31,444 nucleotides of DNA. It comes from Endomicrobiia bacterium. Its GTDB lineage: Bacteria > Elusimicrobiota > Endomicrobiia > PHAN01. Location: positions 1 through 31,444 of the forward strand of contig JASEHK010000001.1 in NCBI GenBank assembly GCA_030018875.1, written 5' to 3'. The notes below the pieces were generated by a model. That model did no database searches. It worked only from the letters and a program-made list of their open reading frames with translations, and had not been told where the DNA came from. Below are positions 1 through 14,957 of this stretch, piece by piece. Within the stretch, counting starts at the first letter, position 1; each line of letters begins with the position of its first letter. Position numbers and translations under genes: made by a program.

Positions 1-12
1 CTTATGTTTCAT
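1..12 (-). CDS. 5' end (MKHK...) of the next gene of the ArsR-DsrE-porin operon, truncated by the window edge
   Basis: On the minus strand, GGAG-aatattttca-ATG AAA CAT AAG follows the stop of the 31..1131 ORF. Confidence 0.4.
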
Positions 13-30
13 TGAAAATATTCTCCGTTC

Positions 31-1131
31 TTATCCCGCGTAACGATGGTATTTCCAAAAGTTAGAAGCGTACAAAACGACCGCCATAACGATGCTCAAA
101 TAACACACGAACAGCAGCGCCGTGTTCCGATAATAGTTACCGTAAACGTAACAGCCCAGAACTTCAAATCCCACAAGAGCGCACACAGGACTCCACAAAC
201 TCGGATAAAACTCTTTCTTGCCGAATTCCTCCAGAAAATATTCCTTGAGCAGATAAGATATAAACAAAATGCAGAATGCGGCGGCGGTGAAAGAGCCCGT
301 GACGACAAAAAACGAGAACGCGTTCAAATCATAAGCAAACGTATTTTTCAGATAAACATTGAACTTGTAGACGCTTACGCCGAACAGGCAGAGTATCGGC
401 ACGACGGTAAAATAACCGGGCAAAAAAGTTTTTTCGGGCAGTTTTTCCGCTCTCAACTGATGATAAACCAGTATGATAAGTTTGACGACAAAAAGAAACG
501 CTCCGGCGGCGAGCGCAGTCATCGTCATTAAAGCCGCGGCGGACGCGACATTATTTTTCGCCGACAAAGACGCTATGCCCGCTCCGACCAGCGATACCAT
601 TCCGAACGCAAAAACATCCAGTAGCCATCCGAAATTCAATTTATCGGTCTCCACGGGTTTTGTAACCCATGACTTAACCGCCCTTGCCTCGGCCAGAAGC
701 AGAAGAATCCATAGAATGGTCCATACGATAAAAGCGGGCAAAAGCGCGGATTGAACCGTTATGCCGAAGAAAAAAACCGCGGGGCCCATAAGGACGTTTA
801 TGCTCATTGCAAGCGAAATTATCGGAGAAAAAATACCGATATTCGTAGGATGCGAGTTCATAAAATCGCCGGATTCTTTTTTGTCCGAAATCCACAAAAC
901 CATATCTTTCAGATAAAACATCGTTAAAACGACATGCGCCGCCGCGAAAACCGCCATTATGCCGACGAGTATCGTTATGAAATAAGAACCCGACATCCCC
1001 GCGCCATAGATGTCGGCGAACCCGACTATTCCTTTTCCGTGCGGAACGGAAAACTGCAAATACACAAAAGGCATAAGAGCGACGCCGGCGGCTGCAAGGG
1101 CGGCCTGAAATTTAATCGGCGAGAATTTCAT
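31..1131 (-). CDS. Multi-pass membrane protein resembling the TsoY (seleno)protein family; possibly a TDT/SLAC1-like fold
   Basis: About 10 hydrophobic segments. The N-terminus FSPIKFQAALAAAGVALMPF..VPHGKG and the late motif LWSPVCALVGFEVLG resemble TsoY-like proteins as I recall them. SD-like GAGG upstream. Confidence 0.55.
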   Translation of the reverse strand: MKFSPIKFQAALAAAGVALMPFVYLQFSVPHGKGIVGFADIYGAGMSGSYFITILVGIMAVFAAAHVVLTMFYLKDMVLWISDKKESGDFMNSHPTNIGIFSPIISLAMSINVLMGPAVFFFGITVQSALLPAFIVWTILWILLLLAEARAVKSWVTKPVETDKLNFGWLLDVFAFGMVSLVGAGIASLSAKNNVASAAALMTMTALAAGAFLFVVKLIILVYHQLRAEKLPEKTFLPGYFTVVPILCLFGVSVYKFNVYLKNTFAYDLNAFSFFVVTGSFTAAAFCILFISYLLKEYFLEEFGKKEFYPSLWSPVCALVGFEVLGCYVYGNYYRNTALLFVCYLSIVMAVVLYASNFWKYHRYAG

Positions 1132-1198
1132 ATCGTTTACCCTCGTTATTCCGCCCGTAATGCGCGATGCGGCGCCGGGCGGAAATTTTTCTTTTTGC

Positions 1199-2371
1199 TT
1201 AAAACTGAATCTGAAAAGCGACGGTTATATCGGCATAGTCCCTGTTTACGCGGGGAGCGGTTCCTTCCGTGTCGTAATCTTTCAGCGCATACTCAAACTG
1301 CAGTTTTGAATCGTGGCCTTGCAGGTACCAGTTGACGCCGCCGGACATTTTCCTGTAATCCTCGCCGCCGACGACAGCGCCTTCTCTGTCGGATTTTTCA
1401 TATCGCAACGCGGGCTGGATATTTGACCCGGGCAAAAGATATGCCGCAAGAATATACCAACCCGATGTTTTTCCGACGGGAATATCCCTGTCGTAATTAA
1501 AATAAGCCGCCTCGCCCGTTACGGTTCCGCCATACAAACGCCGCTCGGCAAAGGCATCTATCGTCCATGCGGTATAAACCGGCGACAAAACGCCGGTTTT
1601 ATACTTGCCCGACAGATAACCCGCTCCCATGGAAAAGACGTCTCCGCCGCCGAGATAAGCGCCGCTATTGGCATAGCCTTTTTCGACGCCCGCTGGAGTC
1701 AGGGAAATCCGGGCGGAATAAAAAGACGCCGCGTCGTCGGCGACGGCTCCGATGGGATTGAGATTTGCGTCGAATATACCGGCATAATATTTGAACTTCC
1801 GGCTTGAAAGCTCACCTGTGAACGCCCAGCCCAAATTGCGAAAATCCGTCGTATCCCCGACGTAACCGGCTCCGCCTATGTCGGGCGAATGAGGCAGAAC
1901 GTAGGCAAATGAGTCCTGGAGCGCGACCCTTGAAAACGGTGTCCTGAAAAGTCCGGTCATTAACTTATATTCCGGAGCGAAATCGAACATTACCTGCGCA
2001 TCTCTTACCGTCGCGGCGTCCTTTGCGACGGCGGACCCGTCCCATGCGCCTTTTTGCCAATCCACATTCGCGCTGAATTGAGCCGGCGAATTTGTCCGGC
2101 CGGCGATATAAAACCTCATCGTTTTAACGGAGATATTCGCGGCGGGATGAGCTCCGTCGGGCGAGGCGTCCTGCGCCGATTGAAGCCAGTTCTGCATCTT
2201 GAACCCGAACTTTGCGGATGTCTCATCGCCCATTCTCATTTCATACCCCGCCGAAAAAAGAAAAGACCCCGGCATCCCGAGCAAAAACATCAACGTTGCG
2301 ATGAATAAAAACCATTTTGAAACGATGCGCGGGCGCACAAACTTTTTAAATCTGTTTTTTGTCGGCCTCAT
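1199..2371 (-). CDS. Outer-membrane beta-barrel porin, OprO/OprP/ExtI-like
   Basis: Signal peptide, alternating amphipathic strands (GWYILAAYLL, IQPALRYE, GVNWYLQGHDSKLQFEY) and C-terminal Phe (FQIQF). SD GGGGAG. Confidence 0.8.
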   Translation of the reverse strand: MRPTKNRFKKFVRPRIVSKWFLFIATLMFLLGMPGSFLFSAGYEMRMGDETSAKFGFKMQNWLQSAQDASPDGAHPAANISVKTMRFYIAGRTNSPAQFSANVDWQKGAWDGSAVAKDAATVRDAQVMFDFAPEYKLMTGLFRTPFSRVALQDSFAYVLPHSPDIGGAGYVGDTTDFRNLGWAFTGELSSRKFKYYAGIFDANLNPIGAVADDAASFYSARISLTPAGVEKGYANSGAYLGGGDVFSMGAGYLSGKYKTGVLSPVYTAWTIDAFAERRLYGGTVTGEAAYFNYDRDIPVGKTSGWYILAAYLLPGSNIQPALRYEKSDREGAVVGGEDYRKMSGGVNWYLQGHDSKLQFEYALKDYDTEGTAPRVNRDYADITVAFQIQF

Positions 2372-2398
2372 ACTTGCCTCCCCATTATATCCGAATTA

Positions 2399-2719
2399 TC
2401 AGAACGTCACTGTTTTGTCCGCTTCCTTTATGATATTGTGCAAATCCTTCATCGTGGAAATCGGGCACAATTGACTTCCGTCTTTCTGACGCAGTTTAAG
2501 ACAGGTGCCGCAGGCAAGAATCCTGCCGCCCGCGTCCAGAAACTTCTGCGCCTGCTCGACGATGTTGAATTTTTCTCCGGATAGTTTTTCATACTCAACG
2601 CCTTTTGCCAAAAGAAAAACATCGACGGAGTCCTTTTGTTCCAGCGCGAAGTTCCCCAGCCGGAACGCGTTCCAGACGAGTTCCGCGTCGGTCGAATAAA
2701 TGACTATACCGAGTTTCAT
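2399..2719 (-). CDS. DsrE/DsrF-like family sulfur-relay protein
   Basis: MKLGIVI..ELVWNAFRLGNFAL, VFLLAKGVE, ILACGTCLKLR and CPISTMKDL motifs. SD AAGGAG. Confidence 0.85.
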   Translation of the reverse strand: MKLGIVIYSTDAELVWNAFRLGNFALEQKDSVDVFLLAKGVEYEKLSGEKFNIVEQAQKFLDAGGRILACGTCLKLRQKDGSQLCPISTMKDLHNIIKEADKTVTF

Positions 2720-2738
2720 AAAGACGTCTCCTTAAGTT

Positions 2739-3056
2739 TTACTTTATTTTTTCAAGCAGCGCTTTGTCTCGCTTGAGTTTTTTAATCAAAATTTTTCGCA
2801 TTATGTCGCAGGCCTTGATTATATCCGGGTCGCTGAGTTCATAACAGACGTTCCTGCCTTTTCTTTCGGCCGTTACCACGCCCTGCTCCACGAGCAAAGA
2901 CATATGCTGCGAAAGTATCACCTTGTTGGTCTTTACCTTCCCGAGCAGTTCGGAGGCGCACAACTTTTTGTTCCTGAGAGCGTTTATTATCATCAGGCGC
3001 ACGGGATTGGCCAGCGTCTTACACACTTCGGCGTGCAGGCCGTAAATCTCTTCCAT
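2739..3056 (-). CDS. ArsR/SmtB family transcriptional regulator
   Basis: KTLANPVRLMII, LSQHMSLL and ERKGRNVCYEL winged-helix signature. SD AGGGAG. Confidence 0.93.
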   Translation of the reverse strand: MEEIYGLHAEVCKTLANPVRLMIINALRNKKLCASELLGKVKTNKVILSQHMSLLVEQGVVTAERKGRNVCYELSDPDIIKACDIMRKILIKKLKRDKALLEKIK

Positions 3057-3100
3057 AAGAAAACTCCCTTTATAAGATACTATTGTTTATTTACTTCTTA

Positions 3101-3129
3101 ACTATATAAAATAAAAAGCGGCGCGTCAA
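3101..3129 (-). promoter_or_regulatory. Sigma70-type promoter of the ArsR operon
   Basis: TTGACG (3129-3124), 17 nt spacer, TATAGT (3106-3101), upstream of the ArsR SD and ATG. Confidence 0.75.
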
Positions 3130-3269
3130 GATGGTCGGAGCGGAGGCGCGGTATCGGGGGTTTATGATAATGGCGGCTGGCGGAAATTTGCGGATGGAAC
3201 AAATGAATCCGGGGATTTTCCGTTGCCCCTCCTCCGACGCCCAAAAATAAAAACTTCACGGGGTGGACG

Positions 3270-3320
3270 ATCCCGCCTTTCCGCCTTTGGCGGAATCCGC
3301 CGCAGGCGTGATTGACGGGA
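3270..3320. repeat. Nested CCGCC-N3-GGCG(G) REP-like palindromes
   Basis: TCCGCC-TTT-GGCGGA (3280-3294) and CGCC-GCA-GGCG are enclosed by TCCCG/CGGGA. Confidence 0.5.
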
Positions 3321-3366
3321 CAAGTTGTTTGAACCTGGCTTGCGGGGGCGTGTATTCGAGGTCTTG

Positions 3367-3402
3367 GCTTGATTTTTGAGGGGTTTTTGGTAAAAATCAA
3401 GC
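3367..3402. repeat. Perfect 11-bp inverted repeat
   Basis: GCTTGATTTTT (3367-3377) / AAAAATCAAGC (3392-3402), 14-nt spacer. Confidence 0.7.
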
Positions 3403-3424
3403 AGGGGACGGGGATAGAGACGCG

Positions 3425-3646
3425 TTAAAACGTGATACGCGCCATGGATATTTTAACGTTGGGAACCCAAAGAAAAAAGATGTGCGCGGAATAACCCTTC
3501 TTTTTCAAAACTTTGAGGAAGTCCGCGTAAGATCTTCCGGCCAGAGTCGTCTCGAAAGAAAAGTCCTGACCCGTCCGCGCGAGGTTGTGAAGTTGTTCAA
3601 GAACGAGTTTCCCGGCTTTCAGCGCGGCGGTTTGAGGCGTTTTTAT
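3425..3646 (-). pseudogene. Internal fragment of a zeta-toxin-like / COG4185 P-loop ATPase
   Basis: Manual translation gives IKTPQTAALKAGKLVLEQLHNLARTGQDFSFETTLAGRSYADFLKVLKKKGYSAHIFFLWVPNVKISMARITF*. It carries the family's FETTL.G and GY..H.FFLW motifs but has no start codon and no Walker A. Confidence 0.75.
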
Positions 3647-4312
3647 TTATCCAAGTTTCGTACCGCACTCGCCGCAGAATCTCGTTCCGACAAAATTTTT
3701 CGCTCCGCATTTCGGGCATTTTATCAAGTCGAGCGGCCCGCCGCAGTTGTTGCAGAACTTACCCTCGCCGGCGGGTTTGCCGCATTGGGAACAGAGTGTT
3801 TGCTTGCTTTCAATTTCTCCGGTAAAGACCTGTGTGCCCGCCGCTTTTTCATGTATATCCTGAACCGCTTTTTGCGCTTTGGCGGCGGCCACTTCAACGT
3901 TTACTCTCGGAGCATCGTCCACACAAAGTCCTTCCTGTTCGTTCCAGTCGTTCTCGCAGACCCATTTTTTGCATTTCGGGCAACGATGAAAATGTTGTTT
4001 TGCTTCGTTCTGGGCAAGTTCAAACGCAACTTCATGTTCCTTGTGCCAGTCGGGGGACATACCCTGATAGCGTTCGGTGAGAATATCGGCTCCCCTTTCA
4101 ATCGTATAGCCCGTTCCATATTTTCCCAACAAAGACGTGCCTATTGACACCGCCCGGCCGAGGCCGCGAAGGAGACCGGCTTTTTTATGGGTTTTGGACT
4201 CCACAAATTTGGTCTTGTAACCTTCTCTGCACAGGTCGCAGAAAAAAGTAAACTGAAACCCCGCATCCGTGCTGTTATCCGCAAAATTACTCGTAAATGG
4301 TTGCAGCGACAT
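3647..4312 (-). CDS. Zinc-ribbon protein with C-terminal double zinc ribbon (DZR)
   Basis: GFQFTFFCDLC, HFHRCPKC, then CSQC/CNNC/CPKC/CGEC. SD AGGAGG. Confidence 0.85.
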   Translation of the reverse strand: MSLQPFTSNFADNSTDAGFQFTFFCDLCREGYKTKFVESKTHKKAGLLRGLGRAVSIGTSLLGKYGTGYTIERGADILTERYQGMSPDWHKEHEVAFELAQNEAKQHFHRCPKCKKWVCENDWNEQEGLCVDDAPRVNVEVAAAKAQKAVQDIHEKAAGTQVFTGEIESKQTLCSQCGKPAGEGKFCNNCGGPLDLIKCPKCGAKNFVGTRFCGECGTKLG

Positions 4313-4328
4313 GGTTTTATCCTCCTTT

Positions 4329-4688
4329 TTATTTTTCCGATATAAACGGAGCCGCTTTTGGCAAAAATGGCTTGCCGCATTTTATACATTTATCTCCAAT
4401 TGGCGGTTGCTCGGTTTTACATTTTGGATTAGGACAAACGACAACCAACCGAGCGTCGCAGTGTCCGCAGTAATCTCCGAAAAAAGTTGTCTTGCCGCAT
4501 TTCGGACAAGCAATTTCCAATGAGAGCCCGCAACTACCGCATTTCTTCCAGTCCTTCTGAATCGGATTCCGGCATTTGGGACAGCGGCTCGACCCAACTG
4601 GATTTATTTTACCACAAAATGGACATACATTTGAATCTTGCTCGATTAACTTCTCGCAATATTTACAAGGATGTTTATATCCCGGCAT
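4329..4688 (-). CDS. Small multi-zinc-ribbon (DZR) protein
   Basis: Eight CxxC/CxxxxC pairs. Start moved to ATG 4688 behind SD GGAGGTGA. Confidence 0.85.
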   Translation of the reverse strand: MPGYKHPCKYCEKLIEQDSNVCPFCGKINPVGSSRCPKCRNPIQKDWKKCGSCGLSLEIACPKCGKTTFFGDYCGHCDARLVVVCPNPKCKTEQPPIGDKCIKCGKPFLPKAAPFISEK

Positions 4689-4728
4689 AGTCAATCACCT
4701 CCGATATTTTAGTTTGTTTCTAATAAAT

Positions 4729-4758
4729 TTCATGGGCGGACAAATGCCCGCTCATGAA
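4729..4758. repeat. Intergenic hairpin
   Basis: TTCATGGGCGGACA / TGCCCGCTCATGAA, 14-position stem with one G-T pair and one mismatch. Confidence 0.5.
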
Positions 4759-4773
4759 CAGCCGGGCGGAATT

Positions 4774-5337
4774 TTAATCCGATGTCCAAATTTCCTCAAA
4801 TTTTTCCTTTGCTTTATCCCAATAATATAGCACCGAGGAGCATTCCACATAAACAATCTCCACTGCGGGCAACTTCAATATTATTTGTTTTCTATCCTTT
4901 TTGTCGGGTCCTGCCATTGTTTCTCTCACTAATCTTCCGGCTGGAATAAATGCTAAATACATATTCGAAAAAAGATAAGTGTCATAATACTCTTCCATGA
5001 TAACTATTGGTTCCAACGTTTTTCGCGTAGCGGTCGAAAGAAATATAACAAATTTTACTTTTACATCTTCTCTGATCTTCTTAAACAACAAAACCGCATA
5101 ATCATTAACCGCATCTCCATTAAAATCTGCTTTTACCCAACCCGGATGTGGAACATCTTTTGACCAGTTTTGCGAAGAATTACTTAAATTAGAGTATTGA
5201 AAAATTTCCCAGCCGGGATAAAAATGTTTTGCCAAAAACAGAACCGCCGACGGCATTGTATTTTTCTGACGCGCTTCAACATTCTGACAAATGATGAGAA
5301 ACGGAACAAATATGAAAAGCAGCGCCCCGTTTCTCAT
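4774..5337 (-). CDS. Exported protein with an FG-GAP/VCBS-like DxNxD motif; candidate immunity protein
   Basis: ATG at 5337 lies 1 nt after the upstream stop (TAA-A-ATG). Signal peptide MRNGALLFIFVPFLIICQNVEA; motif ADFNGDAVNDYAVLL. Confidence 0.7.
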   Translation of the reverse strand: MRNGALLFIFVPFLIICQNVEARQKNTMPSAVLFLAKHFYPGWEIFQYSNLSNSSQNWSKDVPHPGWVKADFNGDAVNDYAVLLFKKIREDVKVKFVIFLSTATRKTLEPIVIMEEYYDTYLFSNMYLAFIPAGRLVRETMAGPDKKDRKQIILKLPAVEIVYVECSSVLYYWDKAKEKFEEIWTSD

Positions 5338-5338
5338 T

Positions 5339-6487
5339 TTATTTATTAACTTTCGGGTCATACTCGATATGAATATGCGGTTCTTCCCCTTTTTCATATA
5401 TCGTATCATAATTTTCTCCCAATTTACTTTTGAGCATTTCCGTTATTCGGTTTATTTGTGAGGCCGCAAGGTCTTTCGTTCTTAAATCAACCGCATTGCC
5501 GGAATAATGACGCGAGTTTGAACCATGTTCACCGTTGGTAGTAAAGGTTACTATCCCATTGCGCCCGGCAATGGCGTTGAATGTATCATTTACTATACTT
5601 TCTATATCTTTGATATTTTGTGTCAAACCATCGCCGGATGTTTGGTCACCAGCATAAACCCATGCATCCCCTTTAAGCCGGGAAAAAATCTGCGCCAACA
5701 ATGACTGAACTTCTTCCCTATGAATAAACCCTTCGGCTTTCAATGTTGAACATTCGGGATGATTTTTGCAGGCGCCACACCCACATCGCTCATTGCGTTT
5801 ATGTTTTCTTCGCGTCATTTGGCATGAAGCGGAATGTATCTGTGTGTCGCCAGTCGGCAAAAAAGCGTAAAATAAAACATTTCCAGTTATTACAAAATTA
5901 TTGATTAAAACCGCCTGGCAAATCTTTTTCCCGTCTTTTCCGATAAGAAAAAGCGCTTTTTCTTCTAAAAATTTTCCTTTTTCAAGTTTAGCGCCGGATT
6001 GAGAGAGCGTCATGATGCCTTCGTCAAATGCTTTTTTGGCTTCTTCTACAAGTTCTTTCGGCGCAAATGCCTCCAACAAATCGCCTAAAGAAATACCTGT
6101 TGATGCGCCCGGTACGGGAGCATCGAAACCATAAGTCGGCGCTGTTTGATAACTTTCAAAAAATTGTTGCGCTGTTTTATTGTCCGGATAACCGGCAATG
6201 TGGAAATAGAGCAAATAATCATGTTTATCAGGGTCAAAGCCACTGACGTTATTAGCATCCTGTTGAGATTTAATTAATTCCGCCAATTGGCCCTTGCTAA
6301 CAAATGGATTTGAAGCAAGCGAATCTATAAAATCCTGCATCGTCCCGGAAAGGGGGCTGATATGACCTAATTTTACATTATGGGCGCCGTCTTGTAATAA
6401 GATATCCACCACTTCCCACCTTGGCGGCCACCGTGAAGGCAGAAGTTTTTTCATCTCTTCTTTTGTCGGCAACGAACTGTTCCTCAT
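5339..6487 (-). CDS. Protein with an unknown N-terminal region and a C-terminal M15/LAS-fold zinc peptidase domain
   Basis: C-terminal RHYSGNAVD (H-x6-D) and PHIHIE (HxH). Start moved to ATG 6487 behind GGAGGGGGG. Confidence 0.75.
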   Translation of the reverse strand: MRNSSLPTKEEMKKLLPSRWPPRWEVVDILLQDGAHNVKLGHISPLSGTMQDFIDSLASNPFVSKGQLAELIKSQQDANNVSGFDPDKHDYLLYFHIAGYPDNKTAQQFFESYQTAPTYGFDAPVPGASTGISLGDLLEAFAPKELVEEAKKAFDEGIMTLSQSGAKLEKGKFLEEKALFLIGKDGKKICQAVLINNFVITGNVLFYAFLPTGDTQIHSASCQMTRRKHKRNERCGCGACKNHPECSTLKAEGFIHREEVQSLLAQIFSRLKGDAWVYAGDQTSGDGLTQNIKDIESIVNDTFNAIAGRNGIVTFTTNGEHGSNSRHYSGNAVDLRTKDLAASQINRITEMLKSKLGENYDTIYEKGEEPHIHIEYDPKVNK

Positions 6488-6561
6488 GTTTTTGACCCCC
6501 CTCCCTGCTTTACGGAGACTTTTCCGCAAATACGCTCAATGGTTACACCTTGCAGCGCCAT
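6484..6561 (-). CDS. Candidate 25-aa micro-ORF MALQGVTIERICGKVSVKQGGGSKT (not in the ORF track)
   Basis: SD-like AAGGAAG before ATG 6561. Its TGA overlaps the next ATG (ATGA at 6487-6484). Confidence 0.45.
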   Translation of the reverse strand: MALQGVTIERICGKVSVKQGGGSKT

Positions 6562-6598
6562 TGGTCCGCACTTCCTTTATTATTTGAGTGAGTTAGTA

Positions 6599-8635
6599 TT
6601 ATCCCCTCGTTCCAGCGACAAAAGTCGGGCTTTTTATCCTAAATTTTCCCCGGCCGTTGTATATTACTATCTGCCTTATGCTATTGAAAGATTTTGCACT
6701 GAACGCGCCGGGGTTGGATTTCAGTAGCGTGAATTTCTGCGGTTCGTCGGCAGGGTTATAGATTTCGATTTCGGCGCCGGAAAAACCCTCGGTTTTTATC
6801 AGTTTCGCGCAAAGATTTGTCCCGGGGATCGGTTGCGGTATGATTTTTTCGGGCCATAACTCTGACGGTATCCCGCGCCACTCTTCATACTTTACGCTCT
6901 TATGGTTGTTTACTTCGGCATCGGCGCAGTCGTCAACCAAAAAGAGAAATTTGGTTTCATCCTCGCTAATCTCTTCAAAATTCGGTTTCCGGGCAAGATT
7001 CCATATTAGTTTCTGTTTAAAGTCATGGCCGACTTCAGGATGCAGGGAAAAGTATTTAAGGATTTTTAGATACATCGGGATGTCGCGCATTTCATAGCCG
7101 AAAACACAGGGCTCCTCCGCCTCGGGGCCGGGTTTTCCCTCGTCAAGACAAAACGCTTCCAGATTAAAACGAATCTTTGAACGCGGGGGAATCACGGTCT
7201 CTGTCGGGTCGTCTCGCAGCATCTTTTCCGCATCGGGAGAATCCGTGATATCGGCAAGTGAGTCCGGGTCAAAATCAAGTTCCGTGACGAATCCCGGCAC
7301 ATTATCAATGCCTCTTTTCGTCCATTTTTCAAGGTCGTTATTCGAAGTTACGTTAAACTTCAATAAATCCATCACATCTTTCTTCCACTGTTCCGTCGAG
7401 GAATGAATGACCCTTCCGATGAAAAGATGGCGCAACTCGCGGAGCGCCGGTATTTTAGCGATGGCGAAATTATATTTCTGATACTGCGGCTCTTTGAGCC
7501 GTTCGTCCGGTAAATAAATCGGTTCTCTCCTGAAGTTTATGGCAAGCATACAACGATTTATTCTTATGGTAAAATTGTCCGTCTCCTTGTGCAAATCTTC
7601 GATATTCTTAAAATTCGGGTAATCTTTCCTGCTTGCGATTCTGAAGAAATAAGTTGCCTTGCCGGCGCCTTCGCCGGAAATTGCCTCCATGGCGACCGCG
7701 TTGCCGGGTTCGTCGGGGTTTTTGCTATACATCGGAATCAAAAACCAGATATACTCCCCGGTCAAATCGCCCAGAAGTCCGCGTTTTAATCCGATACACA
7801 TTTTCTTTTCTTGGGCGAGAGATTTCAAAAAATCGTATTCTTCTTTTATCCCCGCCACCTCCAATTTCTTTTCTAATTCGGTCCAGAGTTCCGGAGAAAT
7901 TGATTCTATGTCGCTTCTTCGCGCCGCCTTGCCTTCTTTCATAAGTCGGGCGGCTCGTCTTATAACCGACGGGTCGGATTTAGGCAATAAATCTTTGAGC
8001 GACGATTGAACTTTGAGAGAAAGTTCGTTAATAGAGTCGGAGAGAGTTTTTGCAAACGGGTCGAATTGTCCGCCCATTTTTGAAAAGACAAATTTTTCTC
8101 CGAAGTCAGTTGTCATCGCAAGGATAAAATCTTCGCCGCAAATTTCTAAAATGTCGCTGTAAGGTATTCTTACGAGTTCTCCTTTTTCCGGTATCAATAC
8201 CAATGCAGTTTCATATAAACGCGGTTCGCATTTTCCTCTTTGTTTTTCATTGCCGCCGTCGTCAAAATAAACAAACTCCGCTTCCGCGGCGGATTTCTTG
8301 AGCGTTTCTTGCATCAACATATCTTTCAAGATTATTTCATTGCGCAAACGCGAAAGAACTCTCATAAAATCTTCGTGCTTGTAGCCGAGATTGAAAATTG
8401 TAAGTCTTTCTTTTGAAGTCAGGGCGAGATAAATTTTATAGTCGCCCCCGGAAATTTCAAGAATATCCCTCAGAGAAAAAAATAACGGCTCGCCGAACTT
8501 CGGCATGACGACAATGTTTTCTTCCTTCAATATGACTTGAGCATCGTTGCTCGCCGCCGTTTGGCTTGCCTCATCACTCAAAGAATAACTCGCGCGGCAT
8601 TCCATAATGATTTCTTGTTTATTTTCTTCGCTCAT
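6599..8635 (-). CDS. 678-aa protein: two tandem PH-like repeats, an unknown middle region and a C-terminal thioester-domain-like module
   Basis: Long ORF. Internal repeat ENIVVMPKFGEPLFFSLRDILEI / ETALVLIPEKGELVRIPYSDILEI. C-terminal FCLD and QKLIW motifs. Confidence 0.75.
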   Translation of the reverse strand: MSEENKQEIIMECRASYSLSDEASQTAASNDAQVILKEENIVVMPKFGEPLFFSLRDILEISGGDYKIYLALTSKERLTIFNLGYKHEDFMRVLSRLRNEIILKDMLMQETLKKSAAEAEFVYFDDGGNEKQRGKCEPRLYETALVLIPEKGELVRIPYSDILEICGEDFILAMTTDFGEKFVFSKMGGQFDPFAKTLSDSINELSLKVQSSLKDLLPKSDPSVIRRAARLMKEGKAARRSDIESISPELWTELEKKLEVAGIKEEYDFLKSLAQEKKMCIGLKRGLLGDLTGEYIWFLIPMYSKNPDEPGNAVAMEAISGEGAGKATYFFRIASRKDYPNFKNIEDLHKETDNFTIRINRCMLAINFRREPIYLPDERLKEPQYQKYNFAIAKIPALRELRHLFIGRVIHSSTEQWKKDVMDLLKFNVTSNNDLEKWTKRGIDNVPGFVTELDFDPDSLADITDSPDAEKMLRDDPTETVIPPRSKIRFNLEAFCLDEGKPGPEAEEPCVFGYEMRDIPMYLKILKYFSLHPEVGHDFKQKLIWNLARKPNFEEISEDETKFLFLVDDCADAEVNNHKSVKYEEWRGIPSELWPEKIIPQPIPGTNLCAKLIKTEGFSGAEIEIYNPADEPQKFTLLKSNPGAFSAKSFNSIRQIVIYNGRGKFRIKSPTFVAGTRG

Positions 8636-10235: not shown

Positions 10236-10841
10236 CTATTTCTTAATAAGATACACGGCCTCTTCGGCAAAGAGATTCGGCAGAACTCCCACGCGGCGCG
10301 CGCCGGTGAAAAATTCCCTTTTTTCCACGATTATTTTCTTTTCTTGAAGATAATCCTCAAAATCACGGACGCTCAAAAAATGAAGATTCGGAGTGTCGTG
10401 CCATTTGTACGGCAGAGACGGCGTAACCGGCGCTCTGCCCGAAAAGAATATCTGGGCGCGGGATTTTAGATGAGCGAAATTGGGAAAGCCCGCGACGACT
10501 TTTCTGCCCACGCGAAGCGCCTCGTCAAGAATCACCGACGGACGCCTGACCTGCTGGAAAGTGTCAAGCAAAATCACGTAGTCGAAGGACTTATCGGCGA
10601 AATCCTTCAATCCTCCCTCAATATCCTCATGCAAAACGCTTAACCCCCGCGCGACGCATTCGTATATCGCTCGCTCGTCTATCTCTATGCCCGTTGCGCG
10701 GGCTTTTTTTTCGCCCGCGAGACGCGCCAGAAGCTCCCCTGAACCGCATCCCAAATCAAGCACTGATGATTTTTCGCCAACCCACAACACCACGGCGTCG
10801 TAGGTAGGATTCTTTTTTTCAAATGGCATGGTTGTCCTCAT
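10236..10841 (-). CDS. metW: Methionine biosynthesis protein MetW
   Basis: [18 protein letters not shown] and [11 protein letters not shown] motifs. ATGA overlap with metX; an alternative start lies at 10829. Confidence 0.92.
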
Positions 10842-11995
10842 TCCTTAATTTCTCGGCTTAAACGGCTCTCGGATTTGCCGACGCGCTCAAGAAAGTGTCC
10901 GATAAGATGTGTCTCTTCCTCGGTCTCCAAAAGAAAAGCGTCGTGGCCGTAGGTTGACTCTATCTCACAATAGGTAACGTCCGCGCCGGCTATTTTAAGC
11001 GCCCGCACGATGTTCTGCGTTTGGTAAGACGGATAAAGCCAGTCGGACTTAAACGAAATGGCCAACACCTTGGCCTTAAGCCCCTCGAAAACCTCGGCTA
11101 ACGGACGGCCTCCAGCGGGATCGAAATAGTCAAGGGCCTTGGTTATGTAAAGGTAAGAGTTCGCGTCAAAGCGCTTAACGAAACTCTCGCCTCTGTATTT
11201 AAGGTATCCCTCCACCTCGAAATCCGGCTCGAATTTGAAAGCCGGCCGCCCACCCGGTTTGGAGCGTCGCCCGAACTTTTCGGCCATAGAGACGTCGGAC
11301 ATATAAGTGATATGCCCGAGCATGCGGGCGACGGAGAGCCCCCTGGACGGAAAAGATATTCCGTAGTAATCGCCGCCGCGCCAATCGGGGTCGGCCATCA
11401 CGGCCTGCCTGCCCACCTCGGAAAAAGCTATCTGCTGCGGCGAATGTTTCGCGGTAGTGGCTATCGGTATGGCCGATGCGATTTTGTCGGGGTGGTAAGC
11501 GAGCCACTCAAGAGTCTGCATCCCGCCCATCGAGCCTCCGGCGACGGACAAAAGTTTTTCTATTCCAAGATAATCTATAAACCTCAACTGCGCGGCGACC
11601 ATGTCTTTTATAGTTATCGTCGGAAATGCCGCCCCATATGGCCGCCCCGTGACCGGATCCACGCAAGACGGGCCGGTCGTGCCCATACATCCGCCCAAAA
11701 CATTCAGGCATATCACAAAGTATTTGTCGGTGTCGAACGCCTTGCCGGGGCCTATCATATCGTCCCACCAGCCGGGTTTTTCGTCGCCTTTGTGATACCC
11801 CGCCGCGTGAGCGTCGCCCGTAAGCGCGTGTTCGATGAGAATGGCGTTGGATTTTTTTTCATCGAGACTGCCGTAGGTTTCGTAGGCGAGCGTGACGGAA
11901 GATAATTTTTCCGACGATTCAAGCTCCAAACCGTCTGAAAAAGTAAAATATTTAGTCTCGACTATGCCGAGACTGCTGTCTTTTGTCTTATCCAT
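10838..11995 (-). CDS. metX: Homoserine O-acyltransferase MetX
   Basis: [16 protein letters not shown] nucleophile elbow, RFDANSY and GHDAFL. Confidence 0.95.
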
Positions 11996-12069
11996 TTTTC
12001 GTTCTCCCGCCCGTTTTATAGAAGATACTTCTTGCTTCTTGTCCCTCGATTATCTCAACTTCTTGCTTT

Positions 12070-12996
12070 TTATTTTTCAAAAAGCCACGTGGATAAATAT
12101 CTTTCGCCGGTGTCGGGCAAAATAACCAAAACGGTCTTGCCGGAGTTCTGGGGCCTGCGCGCGACCTCTACGGCCGCGTACAGAGCCGCGCCCGACGATA
12201 CGCCGGCGAGTATTCCCTCTTCACGCGCAAGACGACGAGCGATGGCGCCGGCATGCTCGTTTGAAACCGTGAATATCTCGTCTATTACCGAGCGGTTCAG
12301 AATATCGGGGACGAAACCTGCGCCGATGCCTTGTATTTTGTGTGGTCCGGGTTTTTCTCCGGAGAGAACCGCCGAATCTTTGGGCTCGACGGCAACCACG
12401 CGGATGGAGGGTTTTCTCTTCTTCAATACTTCGCCCACGCCGGTTATGGTGCCGCCGGTGCCCACACCCGCTACGAAAATATCCACCGCGCCGTCGGTGT
12501 CGCGCCAGATTTCCTCGGCGGTTGTCGTCCTGTGTATCTGCGCATTGCTCTTATTCTTAAACTGTTGCGGCAGAAAACTTCCCGGGAGCGCGCGCGCAAT
12601 CTCCCCGGCTTTCTCGACGGCGCCGCGCATTCCTTTGGCGCCCTCGGTGAGCACAAGTTCCGCGCCGAATATTTTCAGAAGTTGCCTGCGTTCCACGCTC
12701 ATAGTATCCGGCATCGTCAGTATAAGGCGATAGCCCTTTGCCGCGGCCGTAAAAGCAAGAGCCACGCCTGTATTGCCCGACGTCGGCTCGACGATGACCG
12801 AGCCCTTTTTGAGAAGACCTTTTTTTTCGGCGGCTTCTACCATCGAGACGCCTATGCGGTCTTTGACGCTCGACAAAGGGTTGAACGATTCGAGTTTCGC
12901 CAGAACCGTGGCGCACGGAGCCGATGCGATATGATTTATTCTGACTATGGGCGTGTTACCCGTTGTTTTTGTTATGTCTTCAAAAATTCTTGACAC
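12070..12996 (-). CDS. cysK: Cysteine synthase A
   Basis: NPLSSVKDR (PLP lysine), [15 protein letters not shown] and [13 protein letters not shown] start behind SD GGAGG. Confidence 0.95.
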
Positions 12997-13036
12997 AAAT
13001 TGCCTCCGTTTAACGACACTGAATAGCGAGTAGTTT

Positions 13037-13108
13037 GCAGCGGCGCAACTTATCCCGATTTATCGGGATGTAAATTCGCTAAATTCGTCGGCTTGCGCCG
13101 ACCGCTGC
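13037..13108. repeat. Structured intergenic element containing the palindrome ATCCCGAT-TT-ATCGGGAT
   Basis: Outer stem GCAGCGGCGCAA / TTGCGCCG-AC-CGCTGC; perfect 8-bp inner inverted repeat at 13052-13069. Confidence 0.65.
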
Positions 13109-13129
13109 CACTTCCCACTTCCCGCATTT

Positions 13130-14431
13130 TTACCCCAGCGCCTGTTCGATGTCGGCTATTATATCGTCGGGATGTTCCAGCCCGACAGAAAGCCGCACAA
13201 AGTCCGGCGTTACGCCGGTTGCGAGTTGTTCCTCTTGCGACAACTGCTGGTGTGTGGTCGAAGATGGATGAATCGCAAGCGTCTTTGCGTCTCCTATGTT
13301 GGCCAGATGTGAAACGAGTTTAAGAGAGTCAATGAACTTGCGCCCCGCCTCAAGCCCCCCTTTTATCCCGAAACCGACTATGGCGCCGGCGCCAAACGGC
13401 AGATATTTATTAGTCCGCGCGTATTCCGGGCTCGATTTGAGGCCCGGATAATTGACCCATGCGACCTTCGGGCGCTTTCCGAGATACTCGGCGACTTTGA
13501 GCGCGTTTTCCGAGTGGCGCGCCATTCTTAAATGAAGCGTCTCAAGCCCCTGCAAAAATAAAAACGCGTTAAAGGGCGACAGCGCGGGGCCGATATCGCG
13601 CAGCAACGTAACGCGCGCCTTTATAATGTAGGCGATGTTGCCCAGGGTCTTCAACGCCTCCACGAAGTTTATGCCGTGATAGCTCGGCTCCGGGTCGGCT
13701 ATCGTCGGGAACTTCGATTTGCCGTTCTCTTTTACGGTCCAGTCGAACTTTCCGGAATCCACTATGAGCCCGCCTATCGAAGTGCCGTGCCCGCCGATGA
13801 ACTTCGTCGCGGAATAAACGGATATGTCCACTCCGAAATCGAACGGTTTCAAGAGATAAGGCGACACCGTGTTATCGAGGATAAAAGGCAGATTCGCGGC
13901 GTGAGCGATTTTTGATATGCCCTCGAGGTCGGCGACGTCGAGCTTCGGATTGCCGATGGACTCGGCGTAAACGGCTTTCGTCGCGGGCGTGATGGCTTTG
14001 CGCAAAGCGTCGAGGTCGTTCGATTTCACGAACTTTACTTTAATGCCGAAACGCGGGAGCGTATAGTGAAATAAATTATAGGTTCCGCCGTATAGATTGT
14101 CGGCCGAGACGATTTCGTCGCCTGCGCGGGTGAGATTCAATATCGCCAACGTTATGGCCGATTGCCCCGACGCGACTGCAAGCGCCCCCGCCCCGCCGTC
14201 AAGAAGCGCGAGACGCCTCTCAAGCACGTCGGTCGTCGGGTTCATTATTCGCGTGTAGATATTTCCGAACTCTTTTAACGCGAATAAATTTGCCGCATGC
14301 TCCGTGTCGCGGAACTGATACGACGTCGTCTGATAAATCGGCACGGCGCGCGCTCCCGTGGCGGTATCCGGCGTTTGCGCGCCATGCAAAAGAATCGTTT
14401 CGGGCCTCAACTGCTGTTTTTCGTTTGACAT
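13130..14431 (-). CDS. metY: O-acetylhomoserine aminocarboxypropyltransferase (sulfhydrylase)
   Basis: [31 protein letters not shown] (PLP lysine) and [19 protein letters not shown]. Confidence 0.95.
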
Positions 14432-14510
14432 TTTAATTCCTCCCGACCCGCGCTTTGGCTGGGCATTAAATTATATTCTCCGTCGAAATAATAGACAAGT
14501 ATGCGAAAAA

Positions 14511-14957
14511 TTATATCGCGTAATCCGGCTCCGTCGTTTCGATTATTTTGACGCGATCGAGCATATCGGCGAAAGTCGTATGGTCCACGATACGATTTGT
14601 GTAATCTCGGATGTCGCGCCACATATCCACGAACGGACATCCGGCGAAGGCGCGGCACGACGATGGCTCGGTCTTGCTTACACAGGTTATCGGCGATGTC
14701 GCCCCGTCCGTCAGGCGAATAATCTCGCCGAGACGGATTTTTTCGGGCGGTTTCGCCAGAGCAATTCCTCCGTCGGGACCACGACGGCTTCTGACATAGC
14801 CCGCGCCTTTTAATATAAGTATTATCTGTTCCAGATATTTCTTGGGTATGTCTTGACGCTCCGATATGTCTTTCACGCGCACAAGTCCCTTTTCGTAATA
14901 CTGAGCAAGGTCGAGAATTATTTTAAGCGCGTAATCGCCTTTGTAAGTAAGTTTCAT
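14511..14957 (-). CDS. Rrf2 family transcriptional regulator (CymR/IscR-like) with three Cys
   Basis: KGDYALK, IPKKYLEQI, SRRGPDGG and C-x8-C-x5-C. Confidence 0.93.
   Translation of the reverse strand: MKLTYKGDYALKIILDLAQYYEKGLVRVKDISERQDIPKKYLEQIILILKGAGYVRSRRGPDGGIALAKPPEKIRLGEIIRLTDGATSPITCVSKTEPSSCRAFAGCPFVDMWRDIRDYTNRIVDHTTFADMLDRVKIIETTEPDYAI

Follow-up and report, generated by a model that had tools for sequence, protein, structure and literature searches.

A cysteine-form TsoY-DsrE module with an ExtI-like porin in an Endomicrobiia genome: a candidate ArsR-controlled chalcogen conduit

The route by which bacteria import selenium specifically and pass it without harm to selenophosphate synthetase (SelD) is still an open question, with the YedE and YedF proteins as no more than candidates. 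YedE, a membrane protein and candidate selenium transporter, is encoded beside selD with YedF, a SirA/DsrE-like redox protein, and the pair is linked in other genomes to SelD, the cysteine desulfurase NifS (or Sec-lyase), and a “selenium metabolism-associated” LysR-type regulator, LysR_Se (Lin et al. 2015, PMC5322559). Two further families have already been catalogued, namely TsoY, which as listed in PMC13188914 takes its name from the Tso “three selenoprotein operon” (Haft & Tolstoy 2025), and “DsrE-like” selenoproteins with a UxxC motif (PMC13188914). Here, we describe an operon in which a TsoY protein and a DsrE-like protein are encoded together with an ArsR repressor and an outer-membrane porin, at positions 1 to 3,129 of a 31,444-nucleotide stretch of DNA (hereafter the window) that makes up a whole contig (C111; GenBank JASEHK010000001.1) of the genome of an Endomicrobiia bacterium (G000; GCA_030018875.1; 341 contigs, 89.7% complete). 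Our tentative reading, to which we give a little less than an even chance, is that this module is a cysteine-only, outer-membrane-extended version of the selenium-linked TsoY-DsrE module, acting as an ArsR-repressed chalcogen conduit with a thiol relay. The host genome was compared with a sister species (G001), a distantly related genome from the phylum (G057), and a metagenome locus (L092). New here are that the module exists in an all-cysteine version in a SelD-less lineage, that it has gained an ExtI-like porin, and that its NifS partner has decayed independently in host and sister species.

All features of the module lie on the minus strand, in the order promoter, ArsR, DsrE-like protein, porin, TsoY, and a fifth gene cut off by the contig end, with intergenic gaps of 19 nt (ArsR-DsrE), 27 nt (DsrE-porin), 67 nt (porin-TsoY), and 18 nt (TsoY to the ATG of the fifth gene). 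Ribosome-binding sites precede all five starts (as listed, AAAGGGAG, TAAGGAGA, GGGGAGG, CGAGGGT, and ACGGAGAA). An earlier note on this DNA had described one promoter, four co-oriented genes led by Shine-Dalgarno sites, and a fifth start at position 12, and had named the products as an ArsR, a DsrE-like protein, an ExtI/OprO-like porin, and a TsoY-like protein of the SLAC1 family; both the layout and the identities stand, with profile searches passing for ArsR, DsrE, Porin_O_P, and TsoY. We conclude that these four genes are a real repressor-controlled single operon.

TsoY (31..1131, minus strand) is a protein of 366 residues with a ten-helix SLAC1/TehA fold, which scored 404.7 bits against NF047643 (cut-off 250) and 262.9 bits against NF047644 (cut-off 150; model positions 1-366 matched), and which also stood above PF03595 (30.1 bits vs 27.9). 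No in-frame TGA was found in the window TsoY, whose Cys317 lies within WSPVCALVG; database homologues of 321 residues stop exactly ahead of this cysteine, and among 75 homologues resolved by reading their loci through at the motif W-x-x-V-[U/C]-A-L-V-G, 56 carry selenocysteine (Sec) and 19 carry cysteine. Because Cys317 stands at the Sec column and the gene has no TGA, the window protein is a Cys-form member of the NF047644 “(seleno)protein” family. In the TsoY tree, which overall needs at least four Sec/Cys changes, it falls with relatives from its phylum into an all-Cys clade outside the large Sec clade. The window thus shares with catalogued TsoY proteins both the motif and the ten-helix architecture, and differs from the TsoY of the Tso operon in having Cys for Sec, an outer-membrane porin, and a SelD-less host. 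The Tso operon itself was rejected as a match, as none of the four proteins corresponds to TsoA, TsoB, TsoC, or TsoX and the regulator is not TsoR. The match to TsoY would accordingly be a match to a family name and not to a mechanism.

The AlphaFold2 (AF2) model of TsoY contains ten long helices (mean predicted local distance difference test, pLDDT, 91.4; predicted template modelling score, pTM, 0.91), and a Foldseek search with it returned only SLAC1/TehA chains at E<=0.02 (template modelling, TM, scores 0.55-0.75). Two residues, Cys248 and Cys/Sec317, were invariant in a 40-sequence alignment; Cys248 is located in helix 7, three residues past an invariant proline, and Cys317 in helix 9. The pore of TehA and SLAC1 is lined by odd-numbered helices. 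Compared with the TehA/SLAC1/TDT structures (PDB 3M71-3M7C, 7EN0, and 8GW7), the fold is the same (Foldseek probability 1.0, TM 0.59-0.75), but identity is only 12-15%, the invariant Cys/Sec pair of helices 7 and 9 belongs to TsoY, and the window operon has no TehB. A search of solved structures by sequence gave no match for TsoY, the DsrE-like protein, or the porin.

The second protein of the pair is a stand-alone DsrE-fold protein of 106 residues (2399..2719, minus strand; PF02635, 35.7 bits vs 22.7) with a C70-G-T-C73 motif and a third cysteine, Cys85. Its AF2 model (pLDDT 91.6) was closest to the folds of YchN (1JX7, TM 0.86), TusD (2D1P_A, 0.83), and DsrE (2HY5_A, 0.81). C70 aligned with the E. 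coli TusD cysteine in ...NIC-VAA..., which we take to be the catalytic, persulfide-carrying Cys78, and the same column is a TGA (selenocysteine) codon in those DsrE-like homologues whose open reading frames (ORFs) stop early. The conserved position of the catalytic cysteine is also the Sec position of the UxxC “DsrE-like” selenoproteins. Relative to DsrEFH, TusBCD, and YchN (PDB 2HY5, 2D1P, and 1JX7), fold and catalytic cysteine position are shared, whereas the window protein adds the CxxC cysteine, Cys85, and a tight linkage to a membrane channel; it is the single DsrE-fold gene in the operon, with no DsrF/DsrH (TusC/TusB) partners. The protein itself carries the CGxC motif, as does the C-terminal domain of YedF, for whose DsrE-like domain the motif was described (PMC5322559). 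An assignment as YedF (TIGR03527) was rejected at 23.7 bits against a cut-off of 110, and because only model positions 123-193 were matched, the window protein lacks the SirA/TusA-like N-terminal domain. The pairing of a membrane protein with a CGxC carrier is thus the same as in YedE-YedF, but TsoY has the SLAC1/TehA fold and does not belong to the YeeE/YedE family, so that the window module is an analogue of that system and not a member. A further likeness, in logic only, is with thiosulfate uptake by TsuA-TsuB (YeeE-YeeD), in which a membrane protein with essential cysteines hands the chalcogen to a small cytoplasmic cysteine carrier; the folds are unrelated for both parts.

The link to selenium comes from the genomic neighbourhoods of TsoY. 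We collected 79 TsoY loci, one genome per species, and clustered and named the neighbours within 6 kb. A DsrE-like gene, mostly directly upstream of tsoY on the same strand, was found at 36 of the 79 loci, and NifS-type desulfurases, SelD, and LysR_Se at 24 each; at least one of the last three was present at 45 loci. ArsR occurred at 21 loci and an ArsR-rhodanese fusion at 20, with an ArsR-type regulator accompanying TsoY at 39 loci; a CGGC-domain protein was found at 14 and a UbiE/ArsM/TehB-like methyltransferase at 10. In Bacillaceae the order is LysR_Se (divergent), selD, dsrE, tsoY, dsrE2, methyltransferase, and nifS. Hosts of TsoY include Mesobacillus selenatarsenatis, Anaerobacillus arseniciselenatis, Desulfosporosinus, Desulfitobacterium, Thermincola, and Geobacter species. 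Of 49 other TsoY genomes, 47 carry SelD; among them are 12 of the 13 with a confirmed Cys-form TsoY, where Sec decoding does not impose the link. Selenium-type YedE rose above the cut-off in just 4 of the 49, a count that, having no background frequency beside it, carries little weight and that fits TsoY replacing YedE. Given the SelD, NifS, and LysR_Se neighbours, the Sec in TsoY, and the presence of SelD in nearly all of these genomes, selenium is favoured over sulfur for the family as a whole. The earlier note had expected the four genes to co-occur elsewhere; this was borne out for the DsrE-TsoY pair and for ArsR-type regulators, while the full four-gene set recurs nowhere. Its proposal of a route for sulfur or selenium species survives insofar as an inducible envelope route fits, with the comparative evidence leaning to selenium for the family.

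Several of these loci carry features of their own. The CGGC-domain protein (PF08821, about 110 residues, many conserved cysteines) lies on either side of TsoY (e.g., L007 6542-6889) and may be another uncharacterised Cys-rich partner of the channel. The UbiE/ArsM/TehB-like S-adenosylmethionine methyltransferases (L014 5689-6387, L017, L046, L062, L063, and others) recall the pairing of TehA with TehB, a hint that some forms of the module may involve methylation of chalcogens. In Betaproteobacteria (L046, L051, L055, and L061; Rhodocyclaceae and relatives), a Cys-form TsoY stands next to NifS and a gene of the methionine-gamma-lyase/cystathionine-gamma-synthase family, in place of SelD. The selenate-respiring Mesobacillus selenatarsenatis SF-1 has two LysR_Se-selD-dsrE-tsoY clusters (L017 and L018) and three SelD genes, and would be a good cultivable host for genetics of the module.

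The outer-membrane part of the operon is a porin homologue of 390 residues (1199..2371, minus strand; PF07396 Porin_O_P, 41.2 bits vs 20.9), with a signal-like N-terminal segment and a C-terminal phenylalanine, placed in the window between DsrE and TsoY. Its nearest named family is ExtI (NF040900), of which it is a relative only and not an equivalog (95 bits over the full length vs 150); the G057 orthologue scored 102 bits against the same model. Geobacter sulfurreducens reduces less selenite and tellurite when ExtI is lost (PMC5877670). The window porin and that ExtI belong to a common Porin_O_P superfamily, but neither ext cytochrome genes nor the ExtH rhodanese are present here. Among orthologues with readable context, the porin (57-63% identity) is confined to ArsR-DsrE-NifS/TsoY modules: G057 and L092 have the order ArsR-DsrE-NifS(intact)-porin with no TsoY, and Elusimicrobia RIFOXYA2_FULL_40_6 has, judged from locus tags alone, porin and TsoY two tags apart (A3J83_09210 and A3J83_09220) on one 7.7-kb contig. 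That one gene set occurs in differing orders speaks for a functional link between the genes and not for synteny by descent. Searching metagenomes with the porin gave only three loci: one with the arrangement of G057, one truncated where its contig starts, and one (L094, 38% identical) in an unrelated context. No porin was found in the sister species or at any of the 79 TsoY loci outside the phylum, and within a phylum sample of 401 genomes, TsoY and the porin were each present in 2, a rarity that points to probable horizontal acquisition. The 67-nt spacer between porin and TsoY holds a stable hairpin (1149..1184, minus strand; RNA fold of the spacer -23 kcal/mol) that is not followed by a U-tract. 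A search for repeats of the hairpin across the genome gave no second full copy, and an Rfam search over window positions 1-3600 found nothing above chance, its sole match (17 bits, E 0.88) lying inside the DsrE gene; the hairpin could serve in processing or stability, or it could be a scar left when the porin was inserted.

The regulator at the head of the operon is an ArsR/SmtB-family repressor of 105 residues (2739..3056, minus strand; NF033788, 68.2 bits vs cut-off 55), whose Cys12, Cys33, and Cys83 are retained in the subgroup of ArsR proteins encoded next to TsoY. It was rejected as an equivalog of TsoR (39 bits vs cut-off 115) and as a BigR/SqrR-type persulfide or sulfite sensor (NF040642, 43.7 bits vs 155), and an assignment as CmtR equivalog was likewise rejected on score; the cysteine pair of BigR presumably occupies other positions than C12, C33, and C83 of the subgroup. 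Upstream lies a sigma-70-type promoter (3101..3129, minus strand) consisting of TTGACG (3129-3124), a 17-nt spacer, and TATAGT (3106-3101), which matches the consensus at 10 of 12 positions. In a consensus scan, matches of this grade were equally frequent in shuffled sequence; the promoter call nevertheless stands above chance because its -35 and -10 sequences, together with an inverted-repeat-like element that overlaps the promoter, are retained ahead of ArsR in an alignment of G000, G001, and G057. This operator-like repeat (3082..3105, minus strand) covers the -10 box as ATAGTTAA (3105-3098), 8 nt, and TAAACAAT (3089-3082); it is perfect in G057 (ATAGTTAA-N8-TTAACTAT), and the second arm in the window fits at 6 of 8 positions. 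ArsR may bind at this repeat.

The host itself shows no sign of selenophosphate synthesis in our searches. None of the 41 class genomes searched, G000 and G001 among them, had a SelD (TIGR00476) above the cut-off, nor did G057; the best match in G000 reached 38 bits against a cut-off of 125, and tblastn found no match in that genome with four SelD queries or with LysR_Se. The NifS partner, too, is decaying. In the window, the fifth gene (1..12, minus strand) comprises only the first codons (MKHK) of a NifS-type cysteine desulfurase before the contig stops, as seen by comparison with G001, which has at the same place MKHIYLDYNATTP, a NifS/IscS-type start fused to a C-terminal fragment, so that only residues 1-13 and 324-371 remain (L004 9299-9483). 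Another contig of the host, C290, ends in DYNATAP... and retains only residues 7-90 of NifS, 67% identical to the intact NifS of G057 (L084 8038-8409); it probably continues the window past a gap of about two codons, a join suggested by the sequence ends and not assembled. Comparison of the two remnants indicates that the NifS of the module is lost in G000 and G001 through different deletions, independently. Three further NifS/IscS paralogues are encoded in G000 (contigs C269, C33, and C133). Past the NifS remnant, two adjacent ORFs of 130 and 79 residues (L084 7354-7989, minus strand) look like one broken gene, which suggests a stretch of gene decay.

The remaining genes of the module show a different pattern. 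Relative to the sister species, the ratio of non-synonymous to synonymous substitution rates (dN/dS) was 0.07 for ArsR, 0.06 for DsrE, and 0.16 for TsoY, at dS 0.8-1.8, and these low values indicate that the three genes are maintained by purifying selection. The surroundings of the module have been rearranged: accessory genes encoding 678-residue and 221-residue zinc-ribbon proteins lie upstream of ArsR in the window (3647-8635) and downstream of TsoY in G001 (L004 10127-14513), the module having been inverted or moved relative to them.

We propose the following working for the module. ArsR would occupy the repeat at the -10 box and leave it once its conserved cysteines are modified by a chalcogen species. 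A small chalcogen anion would cross the outer membrane through the ExtI-like porin, with selenite, tellurite, sulfite, or hydroselenide/hydrosulfide as candidate substrates, and TsoY, as a channel of the SLAC1/TehA fold, would carry it over the inner membrane, the Cys248/Cys317 pair probably binding it for a short time through a covalent Se-S or S-S bond. In the cytoplasm, the DsrE-fold protein might donate or accept the chalcogen at Cys70 of its CGTC motif. With no SelD and a dying NifS partner, the role here would most likely be protection against, disposal of, or scavenging of reactive selenium or tellurium (or sulfur) species, and the module would not feed selenoprotein synthesis in this host. 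Among SLAC1/TDT members, TehA is associated with tellurite and yeast Ssu1 with sulfite, and SLAC1, TehA, and Ssu1 release or resist anions. By analogy with these relatives, and because derepression of an ArsR type is the logic of a resistance operon, we lean slightly toward efflux or protection as the direction of transport. Substrate, direction, covalent relay, and the operator and inducer of ArsR are all inferred.

Several points weigh against this reading. The roles of TsoY and of the DsrE-like subfamily are predictions from sequence and models, and the placement of Cys248 and Cys317 as pore-facing or mutually near would follow from helix numbering only. Sulfur chemistry suits every component equally well, and the selenium link may be irrelevant in an organism without SelD. 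The co-occurrence of TsoY with SelD is partly forced, since a Sec-containing TsoY requires SelD. The porin scored under the ExtI cut-off, and the ExtI phenotype may itself be indirect, via haem proteins (PMC5877670). Finally, the negative searches concern a host genome that is only 89.7% complete, compared with 96% for the sister species.

The alternative that survives best, which we nevertheless regard as unlikely, is sulfur acquisition, in which porin and TsoY would import sulfite, thiosulfate, or polysulfide, the DsrE-like protein would carry sulfane sulfur, and the resulting sulfide would serve CysK and MetY. DsrE-fold proteins and NifS are classical sulfur-relay parts, rhodanese and MBL-fold genes lie near some TsoY loci, and the SelD-less host would suit such a role, as would the presence in both G000 (contig C80 835-1428) and G001 of a small NIR_SIR-domain protein together with the lack in both of a Sat-type ATP sulfurylase (PF01747; the CysDN type was not searched). 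In the window, a met/cys cluster was confirmed at 10236-14957 (minus strand), encoding an Rrf2 regulator (CymR-like), O-acetylhomoserine sulfhydrylase (MetY), CysK, MetX, and MetW at 7-12 kb from the module, with CysK and MetY at 9-11 kb. The earlier note had suggested that the module feeds this operon, about 7 kb away by its account, but no CysK, MetY, or MetX was found near the module in G001, G057, or L092, and because the cluster stands apart from the module in all three, the link is unsupported. Within the window, moreover, an unrelated accessory operon separates the two, the family-wide neighbours are selenium genes and not genes of sulfur assimilation, and an ArsR-type repressor would be unusual in a nutrient-uptake operon. 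Apart from the module, the NIR_SIR-domain protein and the missing Sat-type ATP sulfurylase hint that the entry point of sulfur assimilation in the genus of G000 and G001 may be sulfite or a more reduced compound.

Quite improbable, in our estimate, is a system unconnected with chalcogens, in which a porin and a channel pass anions in general (for example, chloride, nitrate, organic acids, or phosphate) next to an unrelated redox protein. SLAC1/TDT members do carry many anions, and members of Porin_O_P are, by their Pfam names, phosphate or pyrophosphate porins, but invariant Cys248 and Sec/Cys317 residues in membrane helices would not be expected of such a channel, nor would the close linkage to a CGxC/UGxC DsrE-like protein or the selenium genes nearby. 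We give very little credence to a role, in this host, in acquiring selenium and supplying it to selenophosphate synthesis: the selD-dsrE-tsoY-nifS context of the family (e.g., in Firmicutes), SelD in 47 of 49 TsoY genomes, and the scarcity of selenium-type YedE, as expected if TsoY replaces it but lacking a background control, would speak for it, whereas the absence of SelD above the cut-off from G000, G001, G057, and the 41 class genomes, of tblastn matches to SelD or LysR_Se from G000, and of an undeleted NifS from the module in both species speaks against it. That the module is a decaying relic of a horizontally acquired selenium system with no present function is equally improbable, as its rarity in the phylum, the decayed NifS of both species, and the gene fragments downstream on C290 are outweighed by a conserved promoter and by ArsR, DsrE, and TsoY genes that are intact in both species under the low dN/dS given above.

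Returning to the chalcogen conduit, the 79 loci and the window together show TsoY to be habitually paired with a CGxC/UGxC DsrE-fold carrier, often within selD operons, and show that in diderm bacteria the TsoY-DsrE pair can recruit an ExtI-like porin. Pairing, selD context, and porin yield a concrete, testable three-compartment model. In its broadest form, which is possible but on the doubtful side, TsoY and the DsrE-like protein would be a dedicated selenium transport-and-delivery system and a non-homologous alternative to YedE-YedF, in which Sec/Cys317 and Cys248 hand selenium covalently to the UGxC/CGxC carrier and from there to NifS and SelD, with the Elusimicrobial loci revealing the outer-membrane part, the ExtI-like porin, of a machine kept for selenium and tellurium protection after selenoprotein loss. 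The SelD-less host offers an all-cysteine version of the module that could easily be expressed in E. coli. A module that stays under selection where selenoproteins are not synthesised suggests that its protective or handling role is separable from its role in supply.

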